64,000 bases of DNA. Origin: an uncultured Holophagales bacterium (GTDB lineage: Bacteria > Acidobacteriota > Thermoanaerobaculia > UBA2201). A program made the translations under genes and the position numbers. A model generated the notes under the pieces. The model worked only from the letters and a program-made list of their open reading frames with translations. It was not told the origin of the DNA and searched no databases. Positions 45,994-64,000 of this stretch are shown in pieces; position 1 is the first letter of the stretch, and each line of letters starts with the position of its first letter. The stretch covers positions 2,320-66,319 of the forward strand of contig CAZRVT010000007.1 in the NCBI GenBank assembly GCA_964603505.1. Reading direction: 5' to 3'.

Positions 45994-46048
45994 AAGTTAG
46001 TGCCGTTCCATGAAGCGAGCGTTAAGAAACGGTTAAGATTGCGTTAAG
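45994..46048 (-). promoter_or_regulatory. Pho-box-like array and -10 upstream of pstS
   Basis: Minus strand CTTAAC, CTTAAC, CTTAAC, CTTCAT (plus-strand copies start at 46043, 46032, 46021, 46010; 11-bp period), 10-nt gap, TAACTT. Confidence 0.8.
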
Positions 46049-46078
46049 ACGGGGGCGGCCCCAAAGGCCGCCCCCGTC
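46048..46078 (-). terminator. Hairpin after the porin gene, abutting the pstS boxes
   Basis: GACGGGGGCGGCC-N5-GGCCGCCCCCGTC, 13-bp stem, weak U-tract. Confidence 0.6.
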
Positions 46079-47267: not shown

Positions 47268-47322
47268 AGTGTACGGGCCCCCCGTTAAGAAATGATGAAG
47301 ATTTCATGAAGGGTCGGTGAAG
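47268..47322 (-). promoter_or_regulatory. Pho-box-like array and -10 upstream of the porin gene
   Basis: Minus strand CTTCAC, CTTCAT, CTTCAT, CTTAAC (plus-strand copies start at 47317, 47306, 47295, 47284), 10-nt gap, TACACT. Confidence 0.8.
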
Positions 47323-47356
47323 AAAGACCCGGGCCCGGCCGCCCGGTATCCCGGCC

Positions 47357-47584: not shown

Positions 47585-47613
47585 GGGATGCGGTAAGGCC
47601 CCCTCCCAAGCGG

Positions 47614-47668
47614 CTTCACCGATTCTGAACACGCCCTTCATCAAACCCTAACCGTCCTCCCGTACCGT
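47614..47668 (+). promoter_or_regulatory. Pho-box-like array and -10 upstream of olsB
   Basis: CTTCAC (47614), CTGAAC (47625), CTTCAT (47636), CCTAAC (47647), 10-nt gap, TACCGT. Confidence 0.72.
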
Positions 47669-49788: not shown

Positions 49789-51621
49789 TCAGAGTTCCAT
49801 GCAGGCCAGGTGATCCTGTGAATGTTTGGCCCGCCGCTTGAGCTCGGCCAGCAGGCCGCCGACCGCGTCCGGGGACAAGGCGGGCCCGGCGGCGCGGACG
49901 AAGAGGATGGCCGCGGAGGCCTCCAAGGTCCGATAGCGTTGGAAACGGCCGCGCCGGTCAAGGGCCCGGAATCCGCCGGACTCCAACGCCGCCCGGGAAT
50001 GGAAGGCCAGGGCATCGCCCCGGAACTTTTCCAGAAGACCGCGCACGAACGCCACCACCCCCTCCGGCCCGGCCTCGTCCATCGGGACGGAAACGATGAA
50101 GTCGTCCCCGCCGATATGACCCAGAAAACAATCCCGGCCCGCCGAAGCGGCGCGCAATAGGTCGGCCATCAAGAGGAGGATGCGGTCGCCGACCCGGAAG
50201 CCGTGCACGTCGTTGAACGGCTTGAAATGGTCGATGTCGAGATAGATCAAGGCCCGCCCCTCCCGCCGGGTGAGCACATCGGAAAGATGCTCGTGGATGG
50301 TGCGGTTTCCCGGGAGGCGGGTGAGGGGGTTCTGCTCGCGGGCGAGGGCGAGGTTCTTTTCGTTCATGGCGTGGAGAAGGGCCCGGGCCGAGAGGAATCC
50401 GGCGTAGGCCCCTTCGTGCGTGAGCAGGACCCCCTCCGCCGCCGGGTCCAAGGCCAGCATTTCCAGGATGGACTCCACCCGCGATTCGAGGGGGGCGACG
50501 GGGGCGGGGGAAACGAAGTCCGCCACCCGCTTCCCTAAGGAACGGTTCATCAGGAGGTCGCGGCCGTAGGGGGAATAGACATACTCCTTCAGGTCCCGCT
50601 CGGTGAGGAGGCCGAGCGGCCGCCGCTGGGCATCGACCACGGGGAAGTGGCTGCGGTCCTTGTTCCGGCGGAAGATTTCGAACACGTCCCGCAGGGAGGA
50701 GGCGGGGAATTGGATGGGTTCGGGAGTTTCCATCCAGCCCCGGAGAAGGTCTCGGTCGTGGCCGCGGGTCCGGCGGTCCGCCGCCACCAGGCGCCCCACC
50801 GCCTCGTAACGGGCGAGGACCTCTTCCGGGGCCATCGTCGGCCGGGCCACCCAGAACCCCTGCACATAGTCGCAGCCGATCTCCCGGCAGACCCTGAATT
50901 CCGTCTCGGTCTCCACCCCCTCGGCGATGACCTGGATGCCCAGCGTATGCGCCAGGCTGACCACGGTGGAAATGAAGAGCGCCTTCTTGGGCTCGCGGTC
51001 CACGCCGCGCACGAAGAACTTGTCCAATTTCAGGTAGTCGGGCTCGAGCCGGTAGAGCAGTTGGAGACCCGCGTAGCCGGAGCCGAAATCGTCCACGGCC
51101 ACCCGGTAGCCCTGCTGGCGGTACAGGGCGAGGAGGTCGCCGTCCTCCGTCCGGTCGTAGAACCGCTGGTGCTCGGAGATCTCGAAGCACACCGCCCCCA
51201 GCGGCAGGCCCTGCGCTCCGAGAAGGGATTGGGTCATGCCCGGAGTGAAGTCGGGCATGGAGGAGACGCGGGGGTCGACGTTGAGGAACAGGAGCTGGCG
51301 CTCATGCCCCGGCAATCGGACGAACCGTTCCACGGCCCGGCGCCGGAGGTGGAGCTCGAGGCGGAACAGCGTCCCCTCCTTCACGGCGGCGTCCAGCAGG
51401 GCGTGGACCGTCGGAAAGCCGGCCTGCTCTTGGCGCCGGGCCAGCGCCTCCACCCCGAGGCACACCCCCGTGTGGACGTTGACGATGGGCTGAAAGGCCA
51501 CTTCCAGGATTTCGACGATCCTGCTCCATCGCTCGTCGGACCCTTCGGCTTCCCGACGAGGAGGCGGCGCGGCGTTCCCGTCGTCGGAGGGACAGAGGAA
51601 CCGATCGCCGGCAGGGGGCAT
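49789..51621 (-). CDS. EAL-CBS-GGDEF c-di-GMP turnover protein (start approximate)
   Basis: AFQPIV, VEALAR, DDFGSGY, YLKLDK, IAEGVET, QGF; CBS-like HFPVVD; NPLTRLPGN, DIDHFKPFND, GHIGGDDF. Confidence 0.88.
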   Translation of the reverse strand: MPPAGDRFLCPSDDGNAAPPPRREAEGSDERWSRIVEILEVAFQPIVNVHTGVCLGVEALARRQEQAGFPTVHALLDAAVKEGTLFRLELHLRRRAVERFVRLPGHERQLLFLNVDPRVSSMPDFTPGMTQSLLGAQGLPLGAVCFEISEHQRFYDRTEDGDLLALYRQQGYRVAVDDFGSGYAGLQLLYRLEPDYLKLDKFFVRGVDREPKKALFISTVVSLAHTLGIQVIAEGVETETEFRVCREIGCDYVQGFWVARPTMAPEEVLARYEAVGRLVAADRRTRGHDRDLLRGWMETPEPIQFPASSLRDVFEIFRRNKDRSHFPVVDAQRRPLGLLTERDLKEYVYSPYGRDLLMNRSLGKRVADFVSPAPVAPLESRVESILEMLALDPAAEGVLLTHEGAYAGFLSARALLHAMNEKNLALAREQNPLTRLPGNRTIHEHLSDVLTRREGRALIYLDIDHFKPFNDVHGFRVGDRILLLMADLLRAASAGRDCFLGHIGGDDFIVSVPMDEAGPEGVVAFVRGLLEKFRGDALAFHSRAALESGGFRALDRRGRFQRYRTLEASAAILFVRAAGPALSPDAVGGLLAELKRRAKHSQDHLACMEL

Positions 51622-51650
51622 ACGGGGGGACGCGCCGGAGGACGACGCGG

Positions 51651-52190
51651 TCAGCTGTACAGGACGGCCGTCACCACGGCCGTGGCGGCCGCCCCGTCCT
51701 CGCTCTCCAGGACCAGCCGATACCAGGCGAATAGAAGGAGGACCGGGTCCCCCCGGAGGTACGCCCATTCCGTCTCGCCTTCCAATGCCCCTCCCTGGGA
51801 ACGCCAGGAACGGGCGAACACCATGCGGCGGAAGCGCCGGTCCAACTGACCGGCTTCCACCCCTGCGGGACGCACCGCGCGCCAAAGGTGTTGCCGCCCA
51901 TCGGCCCAGTGGAGGATGGCCGGACCCCGGACCGGGAATTCCATCCGGGCCAGATCGGCCGTCGCTCCCGCCACACGGACGGTCAATTGAGGCCGGAAGA
52001 ACCCCACCCGTTTGAAGGTCCAGAGGCCCTCCGCCGTCGTCCCCTGCGCGAGCGAGCCGCCGGAGGAACGGAACTCGAGATGGGCCAGTGCCCCCTCCTC
52101 ATCCCGGAGCAGCCAGGCCCGCCCCTCTTCGGGGACCCAGCGGCACGGCTTTTCCGAACGAGGGGGAAGGGGGCGGAGGGAGAGTTTCAT
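51651..52190 (-). CDS. Hypothetical protein
   Basis: ATGA overlap with the upstream gene; Trp-rich beta-type sequence (GLWTFKRVGFFRPQLTVR). Confidence 0.65.
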   Translation of the reverse strand: MKLSLRPLPPRSEKPCRWVPEEGRAWLLRDEEGALAHLEFRSSGGSLAQGTTAEGLWTFKRVGFFRPQLTVRVAGATADLARMEFPVRGPAILHWADGRQHLWRAVRPAGVEAGQLDRRFRRMVFARSWRSQGGALEGETEWAYLRGDPVLLLFAWYRLVLESEDGAAATAVVTAVLYS

Positions 52191-53328: not shown

Positions 53329-54024
53329 TTAACGGCCATGGGCCGTTTCCGGCGTTCCGCGGGAGGCGGCCCGCACGAACCGTCCCGTCCAGGAACGGCC
53401 TTCCGTCAGGGAGATGCCGGAGAGCTCCGTCCCTCCCCGGCGCCGGGGAACCGCCGTCGCTCCGGGGCAGTCCCGGCACTCCCATCCATCCAGGACCACC
53501 GACACGGGCACCTGCCGGCGCCCGGCGGTGGTCCGGTCGGCCACGAGGATCTCCAGCGCCTCTCCGGAAGGAAGGGGGGCCTCCAGCACCACGGTGCCTT
53601 CGATGCGCTCGTGCCCCCGGACCGGACCGTCCGATCCGGAGGAGGAAAGGGCGGTGCGGCGCAGTTCCGGGACCGCCCCGTTGCACTGGATGCGCAGGTC
53701 CTTGAGGATGAGCGCCGACAGGTGCTCCTCCAATTCCCTCCGCTCTTCCTCCTCCAGCCCTCCGCTCCCGTCCCGGTCGAACCGTTCCCGCAGAGGCCCG
53801 GTCTCGTCCCCGTGGTCGAGGACGAGGGTCAGGATCACGCGCACCCGGTCCGGCAGGACCTCCAGCCGGTCCTGCTTGGGATACTGCACCCAATGGCCGA
53901 AGGCCCCGCCGGCGGCGAGGACCAGGGCAATGAGAAGGAACAACCCCTCGATGGAAAAAGGGACCCGCCCCCCGGCGGGCGCGGCCGGGGGCGGGTCGAG
54001 GGGAGAGTATTGATGGGCCGTCAT
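53329..54024 (-). CDS. Membrane-anchored hypothetical protein
   Basis: Start MTAHQY; TM segment GLFLLIALVLAAGGAFG; EF-hand-like FDRDGSGGLEEEE. Confidence 0.65.
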   Translation of the reverse strand: MTAHQYSPLDPPPAAPAGGRVPFSIEGLFLLIALVLAAGGAFGHWVQYPKQDRLEVLPDRVRVILTLVLDHGDETGPLRERFDRDGSGGLEEEERRELEEHLSALILKDLRIQCNGAVPELRRTALSSSGSDGPVRGHERIEGTVVLEAPLPSGEALEILVADRTTAGRRQVPVSVVLDGWECRDCPGATAVPRRRGGTELSGISLTEGRSWTGRFVRAASRGTPETAHGR

Positions 54025-54037
54025 GCCGTTGCCTTGC

Positions 54038-57000
54038 TCAGGGACAGGTGCAGGAGACGGGGGCGGAGGCGCTGTTGCGCGGGGGGTTGGGCTCCGCAGC
54101 CGTCTGATTGATGGTCGCAAAATCCGAGTTGTTGTTGTTTGTTTCCGTGCAACCGGCGGTCTTGCGGTCGTCCGCGGTGGTGTTGGACGGCGCCGGGGCG
54201 GGTCCGGCCCCTTCATAGCAGTTGGCTGTCCCGAACCCCACGAAATCCTTGATCTGCGCCCCGGTGGGACAGGCCCCGGAGAGGGCCGTGGTCGAGGCCA
54301 CCAGCGCCACCTTGCCGGCGGTGGAGGACATGGCGATGGAGCCGACGGCGTCGGCGGAGGGGAGGTCGGCGGTCCCGCCGGAGCCCTGCGCCTCCCAGAC
54401 GAGGTAATAGCCGCCGGAGGGGATGGAACCGGAAAGGTTCGTCACCTGCCAGGTGGTCCCGGTGGCGGAGGCGTATTGCACCGACCAGCCGGCGAGGTCC
54501 TGCGAGGAGCCGCCGCGATTGTGGAGTTCGATGTAATCCCGCTTCCAGTAGGCGCCGGAGTTCCCGCCGCCGCCGTAGACCCGGCTGATGACCACCAGCG
54601 GGTCGCAGGCGGAGCCGGCCTCGACGGTGACGGGCACGGTGTCGAGGGCCGTCTGCGCCCCGCCGGGGCAGGCGTCGGTGACGCGGATGGCGGCGGTGTA
54701 GGAACCGGCGGACGGGTAGGTGTAGGTTGTCGAGGCGCCGGTGGCCTCCGCGGCGAAACTCCCGTCGTAGTGGAAGTCCCATTCATAGGTGAGGGCGCCC
54801 TCCCCGCTACCCGTCCCCGCGAAGGTCTGCGCGGTTCCAAGCAGGACGGTGGTGTCGGGGTCCACGTTGACGATGGAGGCGGAGACGCCGGCGCAGACGA
54901 CGGCGCCGCAGCCGATGGCCGTCGGGGCCGTCCGATCGGCGTCGCGGACCGCGTAAGCGCCGTCGGAGGTGTAGCCGTAGGGCCCCTCCACCCCCCCCGC
55001 CTCGGCGACGACGCGGTAGAAGCCGTCCGGGAGCTGGGCGATGTTTCCGAGGGTCCATTGAATGTAGGTGGCGTTGTCGGTGGACCAGGACCCCTCGGCA
55101 TTATTCTTGAGATCGCAGGCCTTGACCCCGTAGGCCCCGGCGTCGATGGCGTCCTTCCCCGAGGCGCCGTAAAGGTGGTACCGGTAGGCGCTTCCCTTGT
55201 AGTCGGCGCGCACCACCAGGCCGCCCCCCGCCTTGGTCAGGGTGAAGGGGACGGCGGCCCCCGCGGGGCTCACTTCGGGGGGGGAGGAGACGGGAAGGGG
55301 GGTGTTGAACTGCCCATCGACGGAGCGGAAGGTTCCGCCGCCGCAGGCGGCGGAGACGCTCTCCACCTGGAAGTGATAGGTGGTTCCGGGGGCAAGCCCC
55401 GACAGGGTGGCGTAGTGGTGGCGCGTGCCGGAGGGGCCGGTGACGGTGGTCCCATAGGCCGTGGAGGTCCCGTACCGGACCGTGGAGGTGGAGGCGAGGT
55501 CGGTGTCCCACACGATCTGCACCGTGGCGGCGTCCACGAACTGAACCACGGGACCGTAGGTCGCCTGCGGGACGATCCCGGCGGCCGTGGTGAAGGTGAA
55601 GTCCCCCGAAACGATCCCGTCGGTCGTCACCCGATAGTGGTAGAGCGTGCCGGCCGCGAGGCCGCTCAGCGAAACGACATGCTGGTTCACGCTCGAGGCG
55701 CCGGTGGCCTGCGACCCGTAGGCGGAGGTGGGGCCGTAATCCACCACGCTCGTTCCCGGCTTCGTGGTGTACCAGGTGACGGTGGCGCCGCACGCGGTGA
55801 CCGGCCAGGCGGCGGGACCATGGAGGATGCGGTTGGGATGGCCCGATTCGATGATGTCGATCCGCTGGCGCGGCAGGAGCTGATAGCTGTCGCGGTAGGG
55901 GCTGGCGGGGTCGTATTGCCCCAGGACCGCAATGACGTCGAAGGTCCCGACGGGCGCCGGCGTCCCGTCGATATCGGTGTCGGAATCGATCCGCATGGTC
56001 ATGTAATTGGCGCCGTCGTTGACCGTGATGTTGGCACTGTTGCCGTAGGCGGGCCAGGTGCCGCCGGTGATGGTGAGGTTGTTGACCCGCACCAGCATCC
56101 CCTCCCACTGGTCGGCGTTGGCCCAGGTCCAGAGGTCGTACACGGTCCGGACCGAGGGCTCGGGGACGGGGCGCCCCTCGTCCAGCAGTTCGATGGAGAC
56201 GCCCGAGAGTTCGAGCAGGCCGTTGTAGTTGGTGATCGTCCCGGTGGCCTGGATGTAATCGCCGGGGTACAGCTCCGGCTTGATGAGGCCGTACTGGTAG
56301 ATGGTGGTCCCGCCGGAGCGCTTGTTGACCGTGTCGATGCTGTCGTCCTGGAAATAGACGGTGTTGGAGCGGTGGTCGAAGGTCCAGGAGCCGGCGGTGA
56401 CGGTCCCCTGGACGGTGACCACCTCGTTCAGGCGCGTGTACTGGTAATTGGCGTCCACCGGCCGAATCTGGCTGATGGGCTCCACCCGAAGGCCGGCGTT
56501 GCCCGGGGCGTCGAAGAGGCCGTTGTTGTTGAAATCGGCGTAGTGCGGGTTGGTGTGGGCGTAGGGGCACACCGGGTCGGTGCCGTACATGGGGGGAAGG
56601 AGGGGATCGAGCCGGCCCGGACAGCCGGGGGTGATGCAGACATTGGAGGCATCGGTCTCGCACTGCCCTCCCTTGACTTCCACCGCCACCCACGCGTCGC
56701 GCGAGAGGGTGAGCGGGTAGGTCTGGTCCAGCCGGACCACGGTGCCGGTGGCGGGGACGATGGAGACGGTTTGGACCGTTTCGCCGTTGACGATGATGTT
56801 CAGTGTGTCCACCGTCATCCAGGCGGGGGCCTGGATCCGCACCCGGAGGGTGGCGGCGCCGGAGGGGGCGCTCACCAGGGCCCCCATGGGCTGGCCGTCC
56901 AGCCAGGTCTCCACGAAGGGGCCGTTGGTGAGGACCACGCGCCCGCTTCGGACCGCGTCGCGGAAGGCGGCCTCGGTGATCGCCGCCGGCGCGTCCGTCC

Positions 57001-59032
57001 CCGTATAGACATAATTGCGGGGATAGCCGATCTCCTGGGAGAAGATTTGGTGGGTGTCGGTGTTCCCCACCCCCACCACCCGGTGGCCGGCGTTGAGGAG
57101 GTTGTACCAGTCGTTGAGGACCTGGGCCACCTGGTAGAGCCGCTTGCCGTTGACCACCTCCACGGCGTCGTAATCGTCGGAGTAGGCGGGGTCGCCGGGT
57201 TCCGCCGTGACGGGGTTGAGGGCGCAGAGGTCGAAGTAGCCCAGCCCTCCGGCCCTGGGGTGGTTCACCTGCACCACCGGGTCCTTCGGGTCGGACCGCA
57301 GGGCGCTGAAGATCTGCTGGGGGGAGAGGCCCGCGTGGTCCAGGGCCCCGTTGCGGGGGGCGCCGGGGTCCCGTGTGAGCGGGTAGCCGTTGTGGTGGCC
57401 CCAGGTGTTGGTCGTCACTTCATCCCCGGAGAACGCATTGACATGCGCCCCCATCCCCGTCGCGGCGATGGCGGTGTTCATCTCGGAGATGTAGTCGTGG
57501 TCGGTGACCACCACGATCTCCAGCCCCTCGGCCGCGGACTGGACGGCGCGGTCCTCCCACGCAATGGCCGAGTCGGCCGATCCGGCCCCGTGGACGTGCA
57601 TGTCCCCGGAGACATAGCCCGCGGTGTCCACCACCTTCTGCAGGACGGCGTTGAAGACGGCGGTCCCCGCCTCGGCCACCGTGAGGGTCTGGACCGCCGG
57701 CTCATACTCGACGCCCCGGGTGGCCCATACCTGGTAGGTGCCCGGCGGGACGATGGTGGAGCCCGGCCCGGAGCCCGAGAGGATGGCGTACCCGCCGATG
57801 AGGCTGCGGCTGTCCCCCAGCGTGGGCCCCTCCCACTTGGCGGTCAGGGGGGAGTAGAGGACGGAGATCTTGGCGGGCAGGGGCCCGCCCAGGGCGTCCC
57901 GGATGTCCCACGCGAGGGTGCCGGGCCGCGACATCGTCTGGTTCAGCGTCGTGGTGCTGCCGGCGGCGACGGCGACCGTCTGGCAGGCGGTGGTGGTGCG
58001 CCCCACGGCCTTGAACAGGACGTAATAGGTCCCCGGCTCAAGGTCGGCCGAATAGGCGCCGGAGGCGTTGGTGCGGGCGATGGTGTAGGACTTGGAGCCG
58101 GAGGCGCCCAGGCAGGCGCCGGTGTTGATGACCACCGAGGCCCCCGACACGGGGTTGCCGGTGACATTCTCCACCACGGCCCCCGCCAGCGTCCCGGTGA
58201 AGGTCCCGCTGAGGTGGAAGGCCTCGTCCGAGACCGAAGCGATGGAGCCGGTCCCCACGATGAAGTATCGCGTATACGCCCCCGTCCCCCCCCCGGCCGG
58301 GAGGTTCAGGTAGATGAAATTGGTGTCCGACCACGTGGAGCCGTTGGACATCTCGATGAGAGGATTGCCCGCGGGCCGGCCCACGCCGTAGGCCGATCCC
58401 TGTCCGTCCCCGGCCACCCAAGGACAGTCGAGGGTCTTGCCGCCGATGTCGTAGCCGTCGCCAAGGATGTTGCGGTTCAGGTTGGCCCACCCCGGGGCGA
58501 AGTGGGTGGTGAGCCCCCACTGCACCGCATCCCCCACCTGCAATTGCTGGATGTCGGACGGGCCTTGGTTGGTCAAGGTGGTGGTAACGGTCACGAACCG
58601 GTCGCCGGGCGCCAGCGTGTAGTCCGTGACCACCGCGATCTCGGGGTTTTCCGAGTCCACCCCCGTGCAGCGGATGTGCGCGGTCTGGCCGCCCCCGCCG
58701 GGATTGACGACGGCCAGGGTCGTGTAGTTGGCCTGCCGGCCGAAGTGGTTGTCGAACATGGTGAACATCGAGGCGAACCGGTCCTCGCCGGCGGCGTCGG
58801 CCGCGTCGATGATGTTGCCGCCGGTGTTGGCGAAGCCGTGGGGATGGTCGATGGCGTCGATGATCACCCGGATCTGCCCGTTCGAAAGCAGATAGTCGCC
58901 GATCTGACCGTCGGCCGTGACGCCGGGGATGAGCTGGGCGGACGACGTGATGGGGACCGCGGTGGCTTGGGCGGTCAACCGCAGAGGGGCCAGCACGAGG
59001 AGCAACAGGGCCAACATCCGGATGGATCGCAT
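54038..59032 (-). CDS. Giant exported PHP-domain metallohydrolase (CehA/McbA-like) with OB-fold, FN3/purple-acid-phosphatase-N-like, PKD and lamin-tail domains
   Basis: AAGGAGG RBS, signal peptide; PHP motifs GDMHVH, TDHD, HHNGY, NHPR, GNTDTH; OB-like VVTVQGTVT..YFQDD; two VxYGxxxxYG...LxGLxxGTxYHY/F repeats; PKD TYEWDF...YTAAIRVTD; LTD VISRVYGGGGNSG..DYIELHN. Confidence 0.88.
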   Translation of the reverse strand: MRSIRMLALLLLVLAPLRLTAQATAVPITSSAQLIPGVTADGQIGDYLLSNGQIRVIIDAIDHPHGFANTGGNIIDAADAAGEDRFASMFTMFDNHFGRQANYTTLAVVNPGGGGQTAHIRCTGVDSENPEIAVVTDYTLAPGDRFVTVTTTLTNQGPSDIQQLQVGDAVQWGLTTHFAPGWANLNRNILGDGYDIGGKTLDCPWVAGDGQGSAYGVGRPAGNPLIEMSNGSTWSDTNFIYLNLPAGGGTGAYTRYFIVGTGSIASVSDEAFHLSGTFTGTLAGAVVENVTGNPVSGASVVINTGACLGASGSKSYTIARTNASGAYSADLEPGTYYVLFKAVGRTTTACQTVAVAAGSTTTLNQTMSRPGTLAWDIRDALGGPLPAKISVLYSPLTAKWEGPTLGDSRSLIGGYAILSGSGPGSTIVPPGTYQVWATRGVEYEPAVQTLTVAEAGTAVFNAVLQKVVDTAGYVSGDMHVHGAGSADSAIAWEDRAVQSAAEGLEIVVVTDHDYISEMNTAIAATGMGAHVNAFSGDEVTTNTWGHHNGYPLTRDPGAPRNGALDHAGLSPQQIFSALRSDPKDPVVQVNHPRAGGLGYFDLCALNPVTAEPGDPAYSDDYDAVEVVNGKRLYQVAQVLNDWYNLLNAGHRVVGVGNTDTHQIFSQEIGYPRNYVYTGTDAPAAITEAAFRDAVRSGRVVLTNGPFVETWLDGQPMGALVSAPSGAATLRVRIQAPAWMTVDTLNIIVNGETVQTVSIVPATGTVVRLDQTYPLTLSRDAWVAVEVKGGQCETDASNVCITPGCPGRLDPLLPPMYGTDPVCPYAHTNPHYADFNNNGLFDAPGNAGLRVEPISQIRPVDANYQYTRLNEVVTVQGTVTAGSWTFDHRSNTVYFQDDSIDTVNKRSGGTTIYQYGLIKPELYPGDYIQATGTITNYNGLLELSGVSIELLDEGRPVPEPSVRTVYDLWTWANADQWEGMLVRVNNLTITGGTWPAYGNSANITVNDGANYMTMRIDSDTDIDGTPAPVGTFDVIAVLGQYDPASPYRDSYQLLPRQRIDIIESGHPNRILHGPAAWPVTACGATVTWYTTKPGTSVVDYGPTSAYGSQATGASSVNQHVVSLSGLAAGTLYHYRVTTDGIVSGDFTFTTAAGIVPQATYGPVVQFVDAATVQIVWDTDLASTSTVRYGTSTAYGTTVTGPSGTRHHYATLSGLAPGTTYHFQVESVSAACGGGTFRSVDGQFNTPLPVSSPPEVSPAGAAVPFTLTKAGGGLVVRADYKGSAYRYHLYGASGKDAIDAGAYGVKACDLKNNAEGSWSTDNATYIQWTLGNIAQLPDGFYRVVAEAGGVEGPYGYTSDGAYAVRDADRTAPTAIGCGAVVCAGVSASIVNVDPDTTVLLGTAQTFAGTGSGEGALTYEWDFHYDGSFAAEATGASTTYTYPSAGSYTAAIRVTDACPGGAQTALDTVPVTVEAGSACDPLVVISRVYGGGGNSGAYWKRDYIELHNRGGSSQDLAGWSVQYASATGTTWQVTNLSGSIPSGGYYLVWEAQGSGGTADLPSADAVGSIAMSSTAGKVALVASTTALSGACPTGAQIKDFVGFGTANCYEGAGPAPAPSNTTADDRKTAGCTETNNNNSDFATINQTAAEPNPPRNSASAPVSCTCP

Positions 59033-59079
59033 GACAACCTCCTTGCATTCAATCAGCGGGCGGCGCACGCCGCACGGGC

Positions 59080-59134
59080 AGTGTCGGGCATTCGTGTAAA
59101 TATTGACTAAGGATTCGGTTTGGATTGCGTTAAT
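59080..59134 (-). promoter_or_regulatory. Degenerate Pho-box-like array facing the PHP hydrolase gene
   Basis: Minus strand ATTAAC, CCAAAC, CCTTAG, ATTTAC at 11-bp period, 10-nt gap, GACACT. Confidence 0.4.
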
Positions 59135-59166
59135 TTGGCCCCGCTCAAACATGCCCGCGCCGCCGA

Positions 59167-59234
59167 CTTCCGGCCGGCTTCATCGGAACTTTACCCATTC
59201 TTAGCCCAAACCGAACAATCGTGGATGATATTAT
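59167..59234 (+). promoter_or_regulatory. Pho-box-like array and extended -10 upstream of the SPFH gene
   Basis: CTTCCG (59167), CTTCAT (59178), CTTTAC (59189), CTTAGC (59200), CCGAAC (59211), then TGaTATTAT. Confidence 0.6.
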
Positions 59235-59389: not shown

Positions 59390-60268
59390 ATGATGATCAT
59401 TGTCGGTTTGTTGATGGGCGTTCTCACCGCCGCGGCATGGTGGCTGGCCTCCATGGTCCGCGGCCGCGGGCCGGTCCCGGTCCGCCGTCTGGCCGCGGTG
59501 GCGGCGGCCTGGTTGGCCTTCGGCCTGGCCGCCGCCGCGGTCCGCATCGTCCCAGCGGGCCATGTCGGCGTTTTGGATTTGTTCGGCCGCATCAGCCCCC
59601 AGCCCCTCGCTTCGGGGCTGCACCTGGTGAATCCGCTGAGGCAGGTCCACCGCATGGACATCCGTACCCAGGAGGTCAAGGAGACCGCCGATTCCCCTTC
59701 CCAGGAGGGGCTCAACATCCACTTGGAGGTCTCCCTCTGGCTCCAGGTCATCCCGGAGCAGGCGCCGGAGGTGTACCGGACCATCGGGACGGATTACCTT
59801 CAAAAGATCGTCATTCCCTCGTTCCGATCGGCTCTGCGCAACACCACCGCCCGACACGAGGCCAAGGCGCTGTACACGGGGGCCCGCGAATTGATCGCCG
59901 AGGAGGTGCAGGGAACGCTGAAGCCCCTGCTGAAGGCCCGGGGGATCGAGGTCCAAAGCGTGATGCTTCGCAAGGTGGAACTCCCGCCGCGCGTCGCCGA
60001 AGCGGTCAACCAGAAGCTGGCCGCGGAGCAGGAGGCGGAGCGGATGAAGTTCGTCCTCCAGAAAGAGCGGCTGGAAGCCGAGCGCAAGGCGATCGAGGCG
60101 GAGGGGATCGCTCAGTTCCAGCGCATCGTCTCCCAGGGGATCACCCCGACCTACCTGGAGTGGAAGGGGATCGAGGCGACCCTGAAATTGGCCGAGTCGG
60201 CCAACGCCAAAACGGTCGTGGTCGGCAATCCCAAAAACGGCCTGCCCCTCATCCTCTCGGGGCAATGA
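59390..60268 (+). CDS. SPFH/prohibitin (band 7) family membrane protein
   Basis: AGGAGG RBS; IVPAGHVGV, SGLHLVNP, SQEGLNI, AVNQKLAAEQEAERM, AIEAEGIA, YLEWKGIEA. Confidence 0.92.
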   Translation: MMIIVGLLMGVLTAAAWWLASMVRGRGPVPVRRLAAVAAAWLAFGLAAAAVRIVPAGHVGVLDLFGRISPQPLASGLHLVNPLRQVHRMDIRTQEVKETADSPSQEGLNIHLEVSLWLQVIPEQAPEVYRTIGTDYLQKIVIPSFRSALRNTTARHEAKALYTGARELIAEEVQGTLKPLLKARGIEVQSVMLRKVELPPRVAEAVNQKLAAEQEAERMKFVLQKERLEAERKAIEAEGIAQFQRIVSQGITPTYLEWKGIEATLKLAESANAKTVVVGNPKNGLPLILSGQ

Positions 60269-60364
60269 GGCGCTTCCAGGCCCCCATCGAGGGGCGATGC
60301 CCGCGGAGCAGGAGTGCAGGGGAGCGCCTTCTCCAGAGGGAGGCCATCGATGGGCCGATTTGAA

Positions 60365-61762
60365 ATGACCGCCAGGCCCCGGGATCGGCAGCCCGATCGG
60401 GCGGGGCGGACCGCGCTTGCCGGCATCCTCCTGTGGATCGTCGCCGCCGGGGGGGCGGGGGTTGACCTGCAGGTGCAATTCGACGTGCCCGGGGGGCCCC
60501 TGAGAAACCTCAACGGCGTGAACAACGGGCCGCGCTGTTTGACGGCCGTGGGGGACTGCGATTACTGCGAAGCCCACCGGGCCATGGGGATCCCGGCCGT
60601 GCGCACGCACGATTTATACGGGCCCACGGATTGGGACCATATCTTCCCCGATTTCTCCCGCGATCCGGACGATCCCGCCAGCTACAATTTTTCGGATTCC
60701 GACCCCTACCTGCTGGCCATCTCCGCGTGCGGGGAGGAAATCTTTTTTCGGATGGGCGTTTCCTGGGGAGGCAGTCCGATTCCGCCGGCCGACCCCGCCA
60801 AGTGGGCGCGGATCGCCGTCCGGATCCTTCAGCACTACAATGACGGCTGGGCGGACGGGTTTCATTTAGGGATCCGGGAGGTGGAGATTTGGAACGAGCC
60901 CGACATCTCGTTGTTCTGGCGGGGAACGCCGCGACAGTATTTTGCGATGTACGAGCGGGCCGCCCGAGCCATTAAGTCCTACGATCCCGCCATCCGGGTC
61001 GGGGGGCCCGGGCTGTGCTGCGACCTCGGCTTCCTGAGGGAGTTTCTCGAGACCTGCCGGAAGGAATCGATTCCCCTGGATTTCGTCTCCTGGCACCACT
61101 ACAGCTCCCAAAGCGAGGCGTATGATCCTTCCGCGCTGAAGAAGTGGGGCCTTTACATCAAGTCCTTGCTGACCAACGCGTATGGTTTTCCGGACACGGG
61201 GAACTATCTGACCGAGTTCAATCGCTCCCTAAAAGACGACGAATTGGAGAACAACTTGAATCTGACGGGAGCGGCCTGGAGCGCGGCCGCCCTCATCCAC
61301 TTGCAGGACGGCGCGGTGGACGCGGCCTTCCGCTACCGGGGGGATGTCCATCCCCTGGGAATGTGGTGGCCGGCCGACCGCGCCTGGCCCGTCCAAGAGG
61401 CATACGCCGCGATGGCCGGAATGCACCGCCTCTCGATGCGCGCATCGATCCGGGGGCTCGGCCGCTGGGTCCCGGAGTCGGCCTTGGCGGGATGCGACGC
61501 CGGAGGACGGGAGTGCCGGATCCTCCTGGCGGATCCGGCGGCGGGCCCTGGAAATCACATCCTCCGCCTGTCGGGCCTGGCCCACGGCCCTTGGGCGGTC
61601 ACCGTCAAGCGTCTGTCGGAAAGCGGCTGGAGGGTGCTGCGCGAGGAGGTCCACCCCGGACCGGAATTCACTTTAGATTTTTCCGCCCCAGCGCCCTTCA
61701 CCGCCGTAGTGGAGTTGCACGGGCCCGGCTCGGAGCACACCCGCCCCACGCCTCCCCCCTGA
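60365..61762 (+). CDS. GH39-like glycoside hydrolase (start uncertain)
   Basis: GVNNGP, VRTHD, EIWNEPD (acid/base), RVGGP, DFVSWHHY, LTEFN (nucleophile). Confidence 0.8.
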   Translation: MTARPRDRQPDRAGRTALAGILLWIVAAGGAGVDLQVQFDVPGGPLRNLNGVNNGPRCLTAVGDCDYCEAHRAMGIPAVRTHDLYGPTDWDHIFPDFSRDPDDPASYNFSDSDPYLLAISACGEEIFFRMGVSWGGSPIPPADPAKWARIAVRILQHYNDGWADGFHLGIREVEIWNEPDISLFWRGTPRQYFAMYERAARAIKSYDPAIRVGGPGLCCDLGFLREFLETCRKESIPLDFVSWHHYSSQSEAYDPSALKKWGLYIKSLLTNAYGFPDTGNYLTEFNRSLKDDELENNLNLTGAAWSAAALIHLQDGAVDAAFRYRGDVHPLGMWWPADRAWPVQEAYAAMAGMHRLSMRASIRGLGRWVPESALAGCDAGGRECRILLADPAAGPGNHILRLSGLAHGPWAVTVKRLSESGWRVLREEVHPGPEFTLDFSAPAPFTAVVELHGPGSEHTRPTPPP

Positions 61763-62021: not shown

Positions 62022-64000
62022 TCAGGCCTCGGTGGGTTGGGGCGCCAGCCGTGGGAACGGCCAAGGGGCCCAGGCCGCCGCCTCCTCCGGGTCCGGTTCC
62101 GGCTTGGGGTCATGCTCCGGGTCGGGGGGATCGGGCCACAGGCGGAAGGGGGGGATCCGCTGCGGCTCGCAAAGCTCGGCCAGGGCACGATCCCAGCCGC
62201 AACGCTCCACGGCCCGGTCCCGGGCGGCCTGCCGCATGGCCGCCATCGCTTCAGGGCGCTCCACCTCCATCCGCTCCATGTCGAGGAGCGCCCCGACCCA
62301 TGCCTTGAGGTCCCCGGCCGGCAGGATGTACCCCGTCCGCGCATGATCCACCAGGTCCTGCGGCCCGCCCCGATCGGACACCAGGGCCGGCACGCCGCAG
62401 GCCATCGCTTCGGCCACCGCCATGCCGAAGGTGTCGGTGGTGCTGGGGAACACGAACGCGTCGGCGGCCGAGTACCATTCGGGCAGGTCCTCCCACGGCA
62501 GGCGTCCGGCGAAGAGGACGCGGGAAAGGCCGCCCACTTTGCGGCGGAATTCCTCCAGATCCGGGCCATCTCCGGCGAGGATGAGGTTGACGGCGGGCAG
62601 GCGCCGGGCCAGCTCCCGGTAGACCTGGATCAGGAAGCCGATCCCCTTGTCCTCGGAGATCCGCCCGGCGTAGAGGAGCGTGAAGCCCGCCGGCAGGCCC
62701 GTGCGCTGTCGCAGGCGCTTGGAGGCGCCCTCGCGCGGGGTGAACAGTCCGGTGTCCAACCCGTGAGGGAACAGAGCGATGCGTTCGGTGCGGTAGCCCC
62801 GCTCCCGGAGGAGGCGGGCGTAGTGGGGGGTGGCGACCCGCACCTCGTCCATCGCCCCGTAGAACCAGCGGAGTCCCGCCTCGAGCGTCGCGAGCAGCGA
62901 CTCGTCGCCGGTGATGGCCCGGGCCTGGAGGGTGAAATCGGTGTGATAGAACCCGACCGCGGGGACGTTCAGAAGGCGGGCGTAGAGGAGGCCGAGGAGC
63001 CCCACGGGCCCGGGGGTGGAGATGTAGACGATGTCAGCCTCGGAGGCCTGGAGGCGGTCCAACGCTCCAAGGACCGACGGCACCCGGAGAAGGTATCGCT
63101 CGTAGTAGGGCAGGGGGAACACATGGATGGCCGGCAGGTCCTCCACACGGGCGGAGGGCAGGTCCGCCGGCAGCGGCCTGTTCAGGGAAGTAACCAGACG
63201 CAACTCCATCCCCCGGGCCTCGGCCGCCCGAAGGATCCCCTGGAGCGTCACTCCGACCCCGTTGAGGTCGGTCAGGGTGTCGGTGAACCAGAGGATCCGC
63301 TTCCCCTGCTTTTCGGCGGGCGCTTTCAGGGCCCGGCCGGCCTCCTCCAGGAGCTCGCGCCCCTGGAACAGGTGCCGCAGGGTGGTGAAGAACGGGACGC
63401 AGAGGAAGATGCCGGGCAGGGCCCCGGCGATATTGCGCACCATGCCCGCCAGGTCGCCTTCCTTGACGTGGCGCTCGGCGGAGCGGAGGAGCGCCTTGAG
63501 GAACTCGTCGCTGACGCGGGTCAGGCCCGGGTAGAGGTGTTCCAGCCGGTCCGCCACCGGGGCCCCCGTGCCGGCCTTGACCTGGTCCACCAGGTCCAGC
63601 CAGGCCGATTGGAGGCCCTCCTCCCTCCCCTTGCCGAGGAGGCGGAGGCGCGCCACCTTCCAGCGGTTCTGGATGCTCATGGACTTCCGTTCGAAGAGAG
63701 AAGCGGCCAGCTGGTCGATCAGGGTCCCGGCCGCCGATCCGGCCTTGGTTTTGGAGAAGTCGTAGGCGACCTTGTAGACCGTGAAGGCGAGGGCCTTGAA
63801 GTCGCTCGACCGCCCGGCCGGTTCGGACCGCTTCGCTCGGATCGCCTCCAGAAAGGCGGCCATCCCCTCCCCTTCGGCCACGGTGTGCGCCCGCCCGACG
63901 AACAGACCGCCGTGGTCGTCCGAGCCGCCCGTCAACCCCTTGACCCAGGGGGTTTCGGGGGTGGGTTCGATCCGGTGGCGGCGCCGGAGGTCCTCGATCT
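62022..64000 (-). CDS. PHP-domain/GT4 glycosyltransferase fusion (N-terminus outside the window)
   Basis: Frame is open to the window edge. PHP end motif GLTGGSDDH; GT-B motifs FTDTLTDLNGV, STPGPVG, YHTDF, LYAGRISEDKG, FPSTTDTFGMAVAEAMACGVP. Confidence 0.85.
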   Translation of the reverse strand, partial: IEDLRRRHRIEPTPETPWVKGLTGGSDDHGGLFVGRAHTVAEGEGMAAFLEAIRAKRSEPAGRSSDFKALAFTVYKVAYDFSKTKAGSAAGTLIDQLAASLFERKSMSIQNRWKVARLRLLGKGREEGLQSAWLDLVDQVKAGTGAPVADRLEHLYPGLTRVSDEFLKALLRSAERHVKEGDLAGMVRNIAGALPGIFLCVPFFTTLRHLFQGRELLEEAGRALKAPAEKQGKRILWFTDTLTDLNGVGVTLQGILRAAEARGMELRLVTSLNRPLPADLPSARVEDLPAIHVFPLPYYERYLLRVPSVLGALDRLQASEADIVYISTPGPVGLLGLLYARLLNVPAVGFYHTDFTLQARAITGDESLLATLEAGLRWFYGAMDEVRVATPHYARLLRERGYRTERIALFPHGLDTGLFTPREGASKRLRQRTGLPAGFTLLYAGRISEDKGIGFLIQVYRELARRLPAVNLILAGDGPDLEEFRRKVGGLSRVLFAGRLPWEDLPEWYSAADAFVFPSTTDTFGMAVAEAMACGVPALVSDRGGPQDLVDHARTGYILPAGDLKAWVGALLDMERMEVERPEAMAAMRQAARDRAVERCGWDRALAELCEPQRIPPFRLWPDPPDPEHDPKPEPDPEEAAAWAPWPFPRLAPQPTEA

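Follow-up and report, generated by a model that had tools for sequence, protein, structure and literature searches.

What does an exported protein of 1664 residues do that joins a PHP-type metallohydrolase domain to a long arm of modules also carried by extracellular nucleases? The question is raised by a single minus-strand gene in a 64,000-nucleotide stretch of DNA from an uncultured Holophagales bacterium (the window, in which all positions given without a contig name are counted), whose 3.04 Mb genome assembly is rated 98.3% complete. The product of this gene, hereafter the hydrolase, is well supported as an exported, Pho-regulated metallohydrolase of PHP type. From sequence and structural models we further infer its chemistry, its nucleic-acid substrate and its final location: the reading we prefer is an exported, Pho-regulated phosphoesterase, most likely acting on extracellular nucleic acid, to which we give a probability of about one half.

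The exported protein and its catalytic core

A minus-strand open frame whose composition is that of an ordinary protein spans 54038..59152. We place the start of the gene at the ATG at 59032, which has AAGGAGG 5 nt upstream and a signal peptide (MRSIRMLALLLLVLAPLRLTAQA|TA) downstream; the start of a nearby porin gene, discussed below, resembles this region (GAGGAGGTTGT-ATG). The coding part then runs from 59032 to 54041, with the stop at 54040..54038, giving the 1664 residues that a preliminary description of the locus had counted. The span given there, 54038-59134, does contain the gene, but its positions 59033..59134 are promoter and leader and are non-coding. The ATG at 59152 was ruled out as the start, as both the promoter and the Shine-Dalgarno sequence fall within that extension. 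A plus-strand open reading frame at 54023..59110, with a Gly/Arg/Pro-rich translation, was rejected as a shadow frame; the region has a guanine-cytosine (GC) content of 68%, and long shadow frames are expected since GC in the window is 63-76%. Residue numbers below count from the ATG at 59152, and subtracting 40 gives the numbering from the real start.

From N- to C-terminus, the protein consists of a beta-supersandwich, CarboxypepD_reg, a beta-sandwich, the PHP barrel, DUF5689, two Pur_ac_phosph_N FN3 domains, a beta domain, PKD and LTD. The gene and its parts are:

54038..59032, minus strand: hydrolase coding sequence and stop (single open frame, Pfam and NCBIfam matches, orthologs at 54-90% identity)
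59080..59135, minus strand: Pho-box-like promoter, boxes AATTAAC, TCCAAAC, TCCTTAG and TATTTAC at 11-bp phase, N10, and a -10-like GACACT (59085..59080)
59038..59044, minus strand: Shine-Dalgarno AAGGAGG, 5 nt before the ATG, read from the sequence
58964..59032, minus strand: Sec-type signal peptide MRSIRMLALLLLVLAPLRLTAQA without a lipobox Cys, read from the translation; the N-termini of relatives are equivalent
58193..58963, minus strand: N-terminal beta-supersandwich, residues 64-320 (AlphaFold model and Foldseek matches)
57623..58192, minus strand: CarboxypepD_reg (321-407) and second beta-sandwich (408-510) (Pfam E 3.5e-10; model)
56537..57619, minus strand: CehA/McbA-type PHP metallohydrolase domain (512-872) with nine ligand positions, then a C-terminal beta-sandwich (NF038032, ligand conservation, model)
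55853..56455, minus strand: DUF5689 (900-1100), two tandem five-stranded beta units, OB-like (Pfam, ExeM_NucH part, model strands)
55298..55825, minus strand: two Pur_ac_phosph_N-type FN3 domains (about 1110-1285) (Pfam E 3.2e-16; PDB profile matches to FN3 pairs)
54893..55285, minus strand: beta domain without family match (about 1290-1420) (predicted local distance difference test score, pLDDT, 55-85; no Pfam match)
54629..54871, minus strand: PKD (1428-1508) (Pfam PKD_4, E 1e-8)
54173..54595, minus strand: LTD (about 1520-1660; Pfam match 1520-1599) (Pfam E 5.5e-15; LTDs of nuclease-type proteins 45-68% identical)
54041..54172, minus strand: C-terminal tail ending CTCP

All nine PHP metal-ligand positions are present (H519, H521, D527, H552, E578, H586, H631, D699 and H701, in motifs HxH, D/H, H, E, H, H, D and H). 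Each of them is invariant in 14 relatives, and in a diverse set of 67 relatives each is either invariant or conserved to at least 90%. The NCBIfam model NF038032 (CehA_McbA_metalo) matches residues 512-872 at 181.2 bits against a cut-off of 80, over model positions 1-314 of 315 (185 bits in the genome search). PF02811, the classical PHP model of Pfam, stays below threshold (11.9 bits vs 26.4) and aligns at motif I only, and profile matches to PHP enzymes in the PDB are weak (E 0.003-0.3). The likely place of the hydrolase in the PHP superfamily thus rests on its ligand motifs together with NF038032. Since the nine ligands and many neighbouring residues are invariant across relatives, we favour a working active site. 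The complete PHP motif set of the preliminary description is borne out by these data, and so are its domain architecture and export signal, through the Pfam and NCBIfam matches and the signal peptide read in the translation.

In an AlphaFold model built on the family alignment, residues 41-900 reach a pLDDT of 86.5 and a predicted template-modelling score (pTM) of 0.83; so high a pTM over 860 residues suggests that they form one compact unit. The modelled order is a supersandwich, two beta-sandwiches, an alternating beta/alpha barrel and a closing beta-sandwich. Strand and helix elements are predicted to alternate at high pLDDT over model residues 473-702, with Foldseek returning beta-sandwich chains only in its top 50 matches. 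The Foldseek matches of the supersandwich are the YidC P1 domain, GalM, rhamnogalacturonan lyase and GH38 C-terminal domains.

A search of 1.84 billion representative proteins with the PHP segment yielded 3982 relatives at E < 1e-3, 1118 of them at E < 1e-30. Most are 800-880 residues long, with the PHP domain at about 460-830 and the same N-terminal layout, including CarboxypepD_reg; we therefore read the first ~850 mature residues of the hydrolase as a canonical CehA/McbA-type protein and the last ~810 as an addition. Such long forms occur in 6 of 185,579 species-representative genomes. Long-form orthologs P0003-P0014, 54-90% identical, come from metagenome-assembled genomes of Acidobacteriota and Binatia. 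Long forms are each other's closest relatives (57-68% identity within the group, 53% for P0125, then about 43% for canonical forms), and all members of the group have DUF5689 and the two FN3 domains, while PKD and LTD vary. Database labels read 'CehA/McbA family metallohydrolase' or, through the OB part, 'YhcR-like'. The long-form architecture is rare and uncharacterised; in the literature we found no paper on it, none that uses the term 'McbA family metallohydrolase' and none that connects secreted nucleases with PHP domains.

At the extreme C-terminus, 11 of 13 family members end in Cys-x(0-1)-Pro (CTCP, CSCP, VCP, CAP and similar; P0003-P0011 and P0014), which in the hydrolase corresponds to 54041-54052 (minus strand). 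The Binatia proteins P0012 and P0013 end in ..REP instead. Among the ~107 other matches of the whole-protein search, mostly LTD proteins, there was no C-terminal CxC or CxCP.

Probable phosphate-starvation control and gene neighbourhood

The candidate Pho box of this genome comprises four TCTTAAC/TCTTCAT-like 7-mers in exact 11-bp phase, N10 and TAnnnT. Apart from the hydrolase promoter, it is found in candidate arrays at four places:

45994-46049, minus strand: upstream of pstS
47268-47323, minus strand: upstream of the porin gene
47613-47668, plus strand: upstream of olsB
C7:66943, past the window end: upstream of a gene for a PHP-GT4 fusion

From the promoters of these four genes we built a position weight matrix (PWM) and scanned both strands of the whole genome (6,058,140 positions). 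The training sites occupy the top four places, and the hydrolase site at 59135..59080 (AATTAACgcaaTCCAAACcgaaTCCTTAGtcaaTATTTACacgaatgcccGACACT) scores 21.9 bits and ranks seventh. The other two sites above it are a shifted register of a training site and a site at the end of contig C44. Sequence common to the C44 site and to matches on C106 and C40 suggests that the former is a repeat. The contig ends at C44:68, C106:72 and C40:47 hold the same AT-rich sequence (..CCCTAATGTTGCATTAAATGACGAAAACTAATGT), which scores in the PWM by composition alone and is probably a repeat that breaks the assembly.

The -10 element of the hydrolase precedes the ATG by 47 nt, a distance similar to those in the training promoters. 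An ortholog of 90% identity lies on contig L015, where the promoter block keeps 62% identity and an unchanged GACACT, and the remainder of the spacer 38%. The three best PWM matches there lie at two sites of the same spacer, one facing each gene, and the SPFH/GH39 neighbours are kept. The preliminary description had spoken of a weak box array fitting phosphorus control; with its genome-wide rank, a layout like that of pstS and conservation in L015, the array is stronger than was claimed. Furthermore, phoU follows pstB, and a full-length PhoB-like regulator of the OmpR family is encoded elsewhere in the genome (C33:11311-11967). Together, these sequence data provide good evidence that the hydrolase is under phosphate-starvation control, and its induction by low phosphate would be expected.

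A second box array at 59177-59232 (plus strand), rank 11 genome-wide, faces the SPFH (Band_7) and GH39 genes (59390-61762) with a leader of about 150 nt; both the array and the two genes are conserved in L015.

The hydrolase gene lies 7-18 kb from olsBA, the porin gene, pstSCAB-phoU and a PiT transporter gene, and about 3 kb from the PHP-GT4 fusion. The loci of its relatives have other neighbours:

L007/L020, Acidobacteriota: Metallophos/5'-nucleotidase gene divergently adjacent; olsBA
L021, Acidobacteriota: PhoX directly upstream; fused OlsA/OlsB-like gene downstream
L023, Binatia: PstS-like-OmpA protein beside HD and PhyH genes
L011/L025, Binatia: PhoD 4 kb away
L008, ENA metagenome contig: TonB-dependent receptor directly upstream
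L009/L022, L010 and L024, Acidobacteriota: no obvious phosphate genes nearby
L012, distant core-only homologue, JGI metagenome contig: Porin_O_P adjacent

Different loci have different phosphate neighbours, a pattern that suggests repeated recruitment into phosphate-starvation clusters and not inherited synteny. A tblastn search with PstB gave only generic ABC ATPase matches, which we discounted.

Across the host genome there was no match to Endonuclease_NS, Exo_endo_phos (PF03372), PhoD or PhoX. Being without PF03372, the genome is without even an exonuclease III-type enzyme. It holds one PhoA-type gene, on C19, which has no box array under the PWM. The PHP-GT4 glycosyltransferase fusion (62022-64000, minus strand, continuing to about 64607) has its own box array and is divergent from a Ppx/GppA-like gene; it could make a phosphorus-free glycolipid in phosphate starvation, and a large glycosyltransferase gene like it stands near the ortholog in L023. 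An EAL-CBS-GGDEF protein is encoded at 49789-51885 (minus strand), between olsBA and the genes downstream of the hydrolase.

Directly past the hydrolase stop lies a partner gene:

53329..54024, minus strand: partner gene of 231 residues, starting 13 nt past the hydrolase stop, with a signal/transmembrane segment, an invariant His and an RFDxDGDG loop (alignment)

Every long-form locus has a partner gene (197-231 residues) that begins only a few bases from the hydrolase stop, and two core-only loci have one as well. The partner proteins share an N-terminal signal or anchor segment, the invariant His right after it and the RFDxDGDG loop, which is weakly EF-hand-like; they match no Pfam family. 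Our guess is a role in metal delivery or anchoring. A terminator-like GC-rich hairpin with a T-run, 58-77 nt past the hydrolase stop (53963-53980, minus strand), lies within the 5' end of the predicted partner frame. It might attenuate read-through, or else the partner gene might start later than 54024.

The C-terminal arm and the substrate

In the AlphaFold model of residues 880-1704 (pLDDT 78.6), DUF5689 appears as two consecutive five-stranded units, followed by the FN3 pair, the beta domain, PKD and LTD. Both end modules of the arm exceed their Pfam thresholds: LTD (PF00932) at 56.1 bits against 34.3 (57.6 in the genome search) and DUF5689 (PF18942) at 31.9 bits against 28.6 (E 1.5e-7, model positions 10-217 of 217; 37 bits in the genome search). 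Residues 914-1030 align weakly with the N-terminal OB part of the ExeM_NucH model (NF033681; E 3.3e-6, model positions 1-116), and the full-length ExeM/NucH model is not matched (26.3 bits vs a cut-off of 300). Pfam places no EEP (PF03372), Endonuclease_NS or metallophosphatase domain in the hydrolase. Homologous DUF5689-type modules in other proteins also match the OB-fold family PF01336. An OB-like fold of the DUF5689 units is thus supported by DUF5689 homology, the ExeM N-terminal match, these PF01336 matches and the five-stranded units of the model. The tandem OB-fold-like units of the preliminary description agree with both homology and model; Foldseek on both multidomain models returned only beta-sandwich or FN3/Ig chains among the top matches (the top 50 for the core model).

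All matches of the whole-protein search outside the family run through the LTD, at 45-68% identity. Among the 103 long proteins matched in this way, 75 carry a catalytic domain of nuclease or phosphodiesterase type, namely Exo_endo_phos (EEP), Endonuclease_NS, MBL (with DUF5689 and an OB fold) or PLD (with DUF5689). The accessory toolkit of nuclease type seen in the preliminary description is supported by this count. ExeM cannot act as a nuclease without its OB region, and its LTD raises the activity (PMC6085458). DUF5689 is the family of DdbD, part of the ddbABCDEF DNA-utilisation locus of Bacteroides thetaiotaomicron and predicted by modelling to be a DNA binder whose fold resembles p202's DNA-binding domain (10.1101/2025.03.18.642099), and its Riemerella homologue is required for natural transformation (10.1101/2025.03.18.642099; PMC8459023).

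The kinship to nucleases has a limit: the C-terminal modules are akin to those of extracellular nucleases, but DUF5689 is not specific to them. In a search with residues 895-1105, the nearest modules in long proteins were mainly on Bacteroidota surface proteins of the type IX secretion system (T9SS). Such T9SS proteins (P0283-P0322 and P0341-P0389) join DUF5689/OB and LTD to cupredoxin or to CBM48/CBM20/SusE-like modules, and some of their automatic labels say nuclease. We conclude from these comparisons that the arm is probably a surface polymer-binding or tethering kit, enriched on nucleases and not exclusive to them. No other protein of its genome carries DUF5689, and just one more has an LTD. 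This protein of about 1190 residues (C34:14915-18544, plus strand) has an N-terminal domain of ~340 residues without a clear family, four FN3 domains and two LTDs; no nuclease domain is recognisable in it.

In the mechanism that we propose, low phosphate would lead a regulator of OmpR/PhoB type to bind the four 11-bp-phased boxes, which would replace a -35 element, and to drive transcription of the hydrolase and probably of the ~200-residue partner gene. The catalytic core would be the CehA/McbA-type unit of ~830 residues, in which a supersandwich and two beta-sandwiches precede a PHP barrel with a putatively complete three-metal site. Attached to it, the long arm of tandem OB-like DUF5689, two FN3 spacers, beta domain, PKD and LTD would hold an extracellular phosphodiester polymer, most likely DNA or RNA, or tether the enzyme at the cell surface, while the PHP metal centre would cleave phosphoester bonds. 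PstSCAB and the Pho-regulated porin encoded nearby could then take up the freed phosphate or nucleotides; the 5'-nucleotidase, PhoX or PhoD encoded next to the gene in relatives may complete phosphate release. A bolder form of this proposal is possible, and we put it forward tentatively: the three-metal PHP domain may be a true extracellular nuclease or phosphodiesterase, a further fold beside EEP, Endonuclease_NS, MBL and PLD on the LTD/OB scaffold, and the main scavenger of extracellular DNA (eDNA) and organic phosphorus in its host, with the dedicated exported partner (N-terminal His, EF-hand-like loop) perhaps loading the metal.

Several observations weigh against a Pho-regulated phosphoesterase for nucleic acids. 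The function of every long-form member is a prediction from sequence and models, and the PDB, searched with two family profiles, with the PHP segment and with the full protein, yielded no close solved structure, only weak matches at motif I. The only characterised CehA/McbA members hydrolyse carbamates and have essential histidines in a PHP-like domain (PMC8292978). The nearest DUF5689-like modules are partnered by cupredoxin with LTD and OB, or by CBM48/CBM20/SusE-like modules, and by MBL or 5'-nucleotidase in a handful of cases only. The DUF5689 module of the hydrolase is net acidic (-14), and the modules of nuclease-type carriers are equally so. The PWM has no match in the distant ortholog loci L007-L014, where either the Pho boxes differ or the loci are not Pho-regulated; direct evidence for Pho control is therefore limited to the host lineage. 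Core-only relatives in general are rarely near phosphate genes, and the last three Acidobacteriota loci listed above, all long-form, show none nearby. Of the surface enzyme acting on DNA or RNA that the preliminary description envisaged, the exported PHP hydrolase with a Pho-type promoter stands; action on DNA or RNA is the conjectural part, given an acidic, nuclease-unspecific DUF5689 and a family characterised through carbamate hydrolases.

The alternative that survives best keeps the Pho-regulated exported phosphoesterase and changes its substrate to another organic phosphorus compound, for instance phospholipid head groups, teichoic-acid-like or glycan-linked phosphodiesters, phosphomonoesters or polyphosphate, with the arm serving only as an anchor to surface or matrix polymers. 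The Pho evidence of promoter and neighbourhood applies to it equally, and the acidity of DUF5689, the prevalence of cupredoxin and starch-binding modules as its partners in surface proteins, the carbohydrate-enzyme-type supersandwich fold of the N-terminal domain and the second LTD/FN3 protein of the genome with its lack of a nuclease domain all agree with it. It accounts less well for the LTDs most similar to that of the hydrolase, which are mainly on nuclease-type proteins, for the match of the DUF5689 part to the ExeM/NucH OB region, for the 5'-nucleotidase among the neighbours of relatives and for the genetic tie of DUF5689 to DNA uptake and use in Bacteroidota (10.1101/2025.03.18.642099; PMC8459023). 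We consider it somewhat unlikely.

It is distinctly doubtful that the hydrolase acts on non-phosphate esters or amides, such as a natural ester or an envelope component, in the manner of CehA and McbA, with its place in the phosphate island reflecting envelope remodelling or chance. All characterised NF038032 members are carbamate hydrolases with essential histidines in the PHP-like domain (PMC8292978), and relatives of ~830 residues seldom adjoin phosphate genes. However, the promoter is of Pho-type architecture and conserved, and different phosphate-scavenging genes adjoin orthologs in different lineages. To our knowledge, all characterised PHP enzymes outside CehA/McbA, with histidinol phosphatase, pAp phosphatase, the PolX and Pol III exonucleases and RNase AM among them, have phosphoesters as substrates. 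An exported phosphodiesterase also has a PHP precedent in Sb-PDE, which is secreted and Zn-dependent (PMC5460133). Moreover, carbamate hydrolysis is unlikely to be the native function because the carbamate substrates are man-made. Finally, the protein might be a surface adhesin or structural component without catalysis, its PHP domain being defunct. This would suit the beta-sandwich, FN3, PKD and LTD modules that make up over half of the protein and are typical of adhesins, yet the invariance of the nine ligand positions and of many residues around them makes this highly improbable.

Significance and known systems

In soils and sediments, extracellular DNA and other organic phosphorus are major phosphorus sources, and the known releasing enzymes belong to few families. 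If our preferred reading of a phosphoesterase for extracellular nucleic acid is true, the hydrolase would add a PHP-based enzyme to these families, in the poorly studied Acidobacteriota and Binatia, and it would act in a genome without the usual secreted nucleases, PhoD and PhoX. A PHP nuclease, if real, would moreover hint that the native role of the large, uncharacterised CehA/McbA family is that of a phosphoesterase. Some 4000 clusters at 50% identity make up this branch, and pesticide hydrolases are all that is known of it to date; the hydrolase would offer it a testable native function. In addition, the promoter analysis defines a candidate Pho box for the lineage, which marks a compact phosphate-starvation island of pstSCAB-phoU, porin, olsBA, the PHP-GT4 fusion and the hydrolase.

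Compared with known systems, the hydrolase resembles in its core CehA/McbA (NF038032), with which it shares the catalytic domain model, the ~830-residue layout of N-terminal beta domains, CarboxypepD_reg and PHP barrel, and export. CehA and McbA are transposon- or plasmid-linked xenobiotic esterases (PMC8292978), whereas the hydrolase is without carbamate context and adds an arm of ~810 residues, a Pho-type promoter and a conserved partner gene. Sb-PDE of Sphingobium sp. TCM1 shares a signal peptide and the PHP superfamily, and is a Zn-containing enzyme that hydrolyses phosphodiesters (PMC5460133); it differs in being a single domain of 441 residues, and its sequence, searched by the published N-terminal peptide and end sequence, had no match among the 150 best representatives. 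With DdbD the hydrolase shares the Pfam family PF18942, and its ortholog in L008 directly follows a gene for a TonB-dependent receptor; DdbD is a stand-alone partner of a TonB-dependent transporter, with predicted DNA binding, whereas the DUF5689 of the hydrolase is fused to an enzyme. ExeM, NucH and YhcR, extracellular nucleases with EEP or 5'-nucleotidase domains, likewise combine LTD and an OB-like module in one exported multidomain protein, and a role in scavenging phosphate or eDNA is plausible for them as for the hydrolase. The latter differs from them in its PHP catalytic fold and in a reversed module order, with the core N-terminal and the LTD C-terminal.

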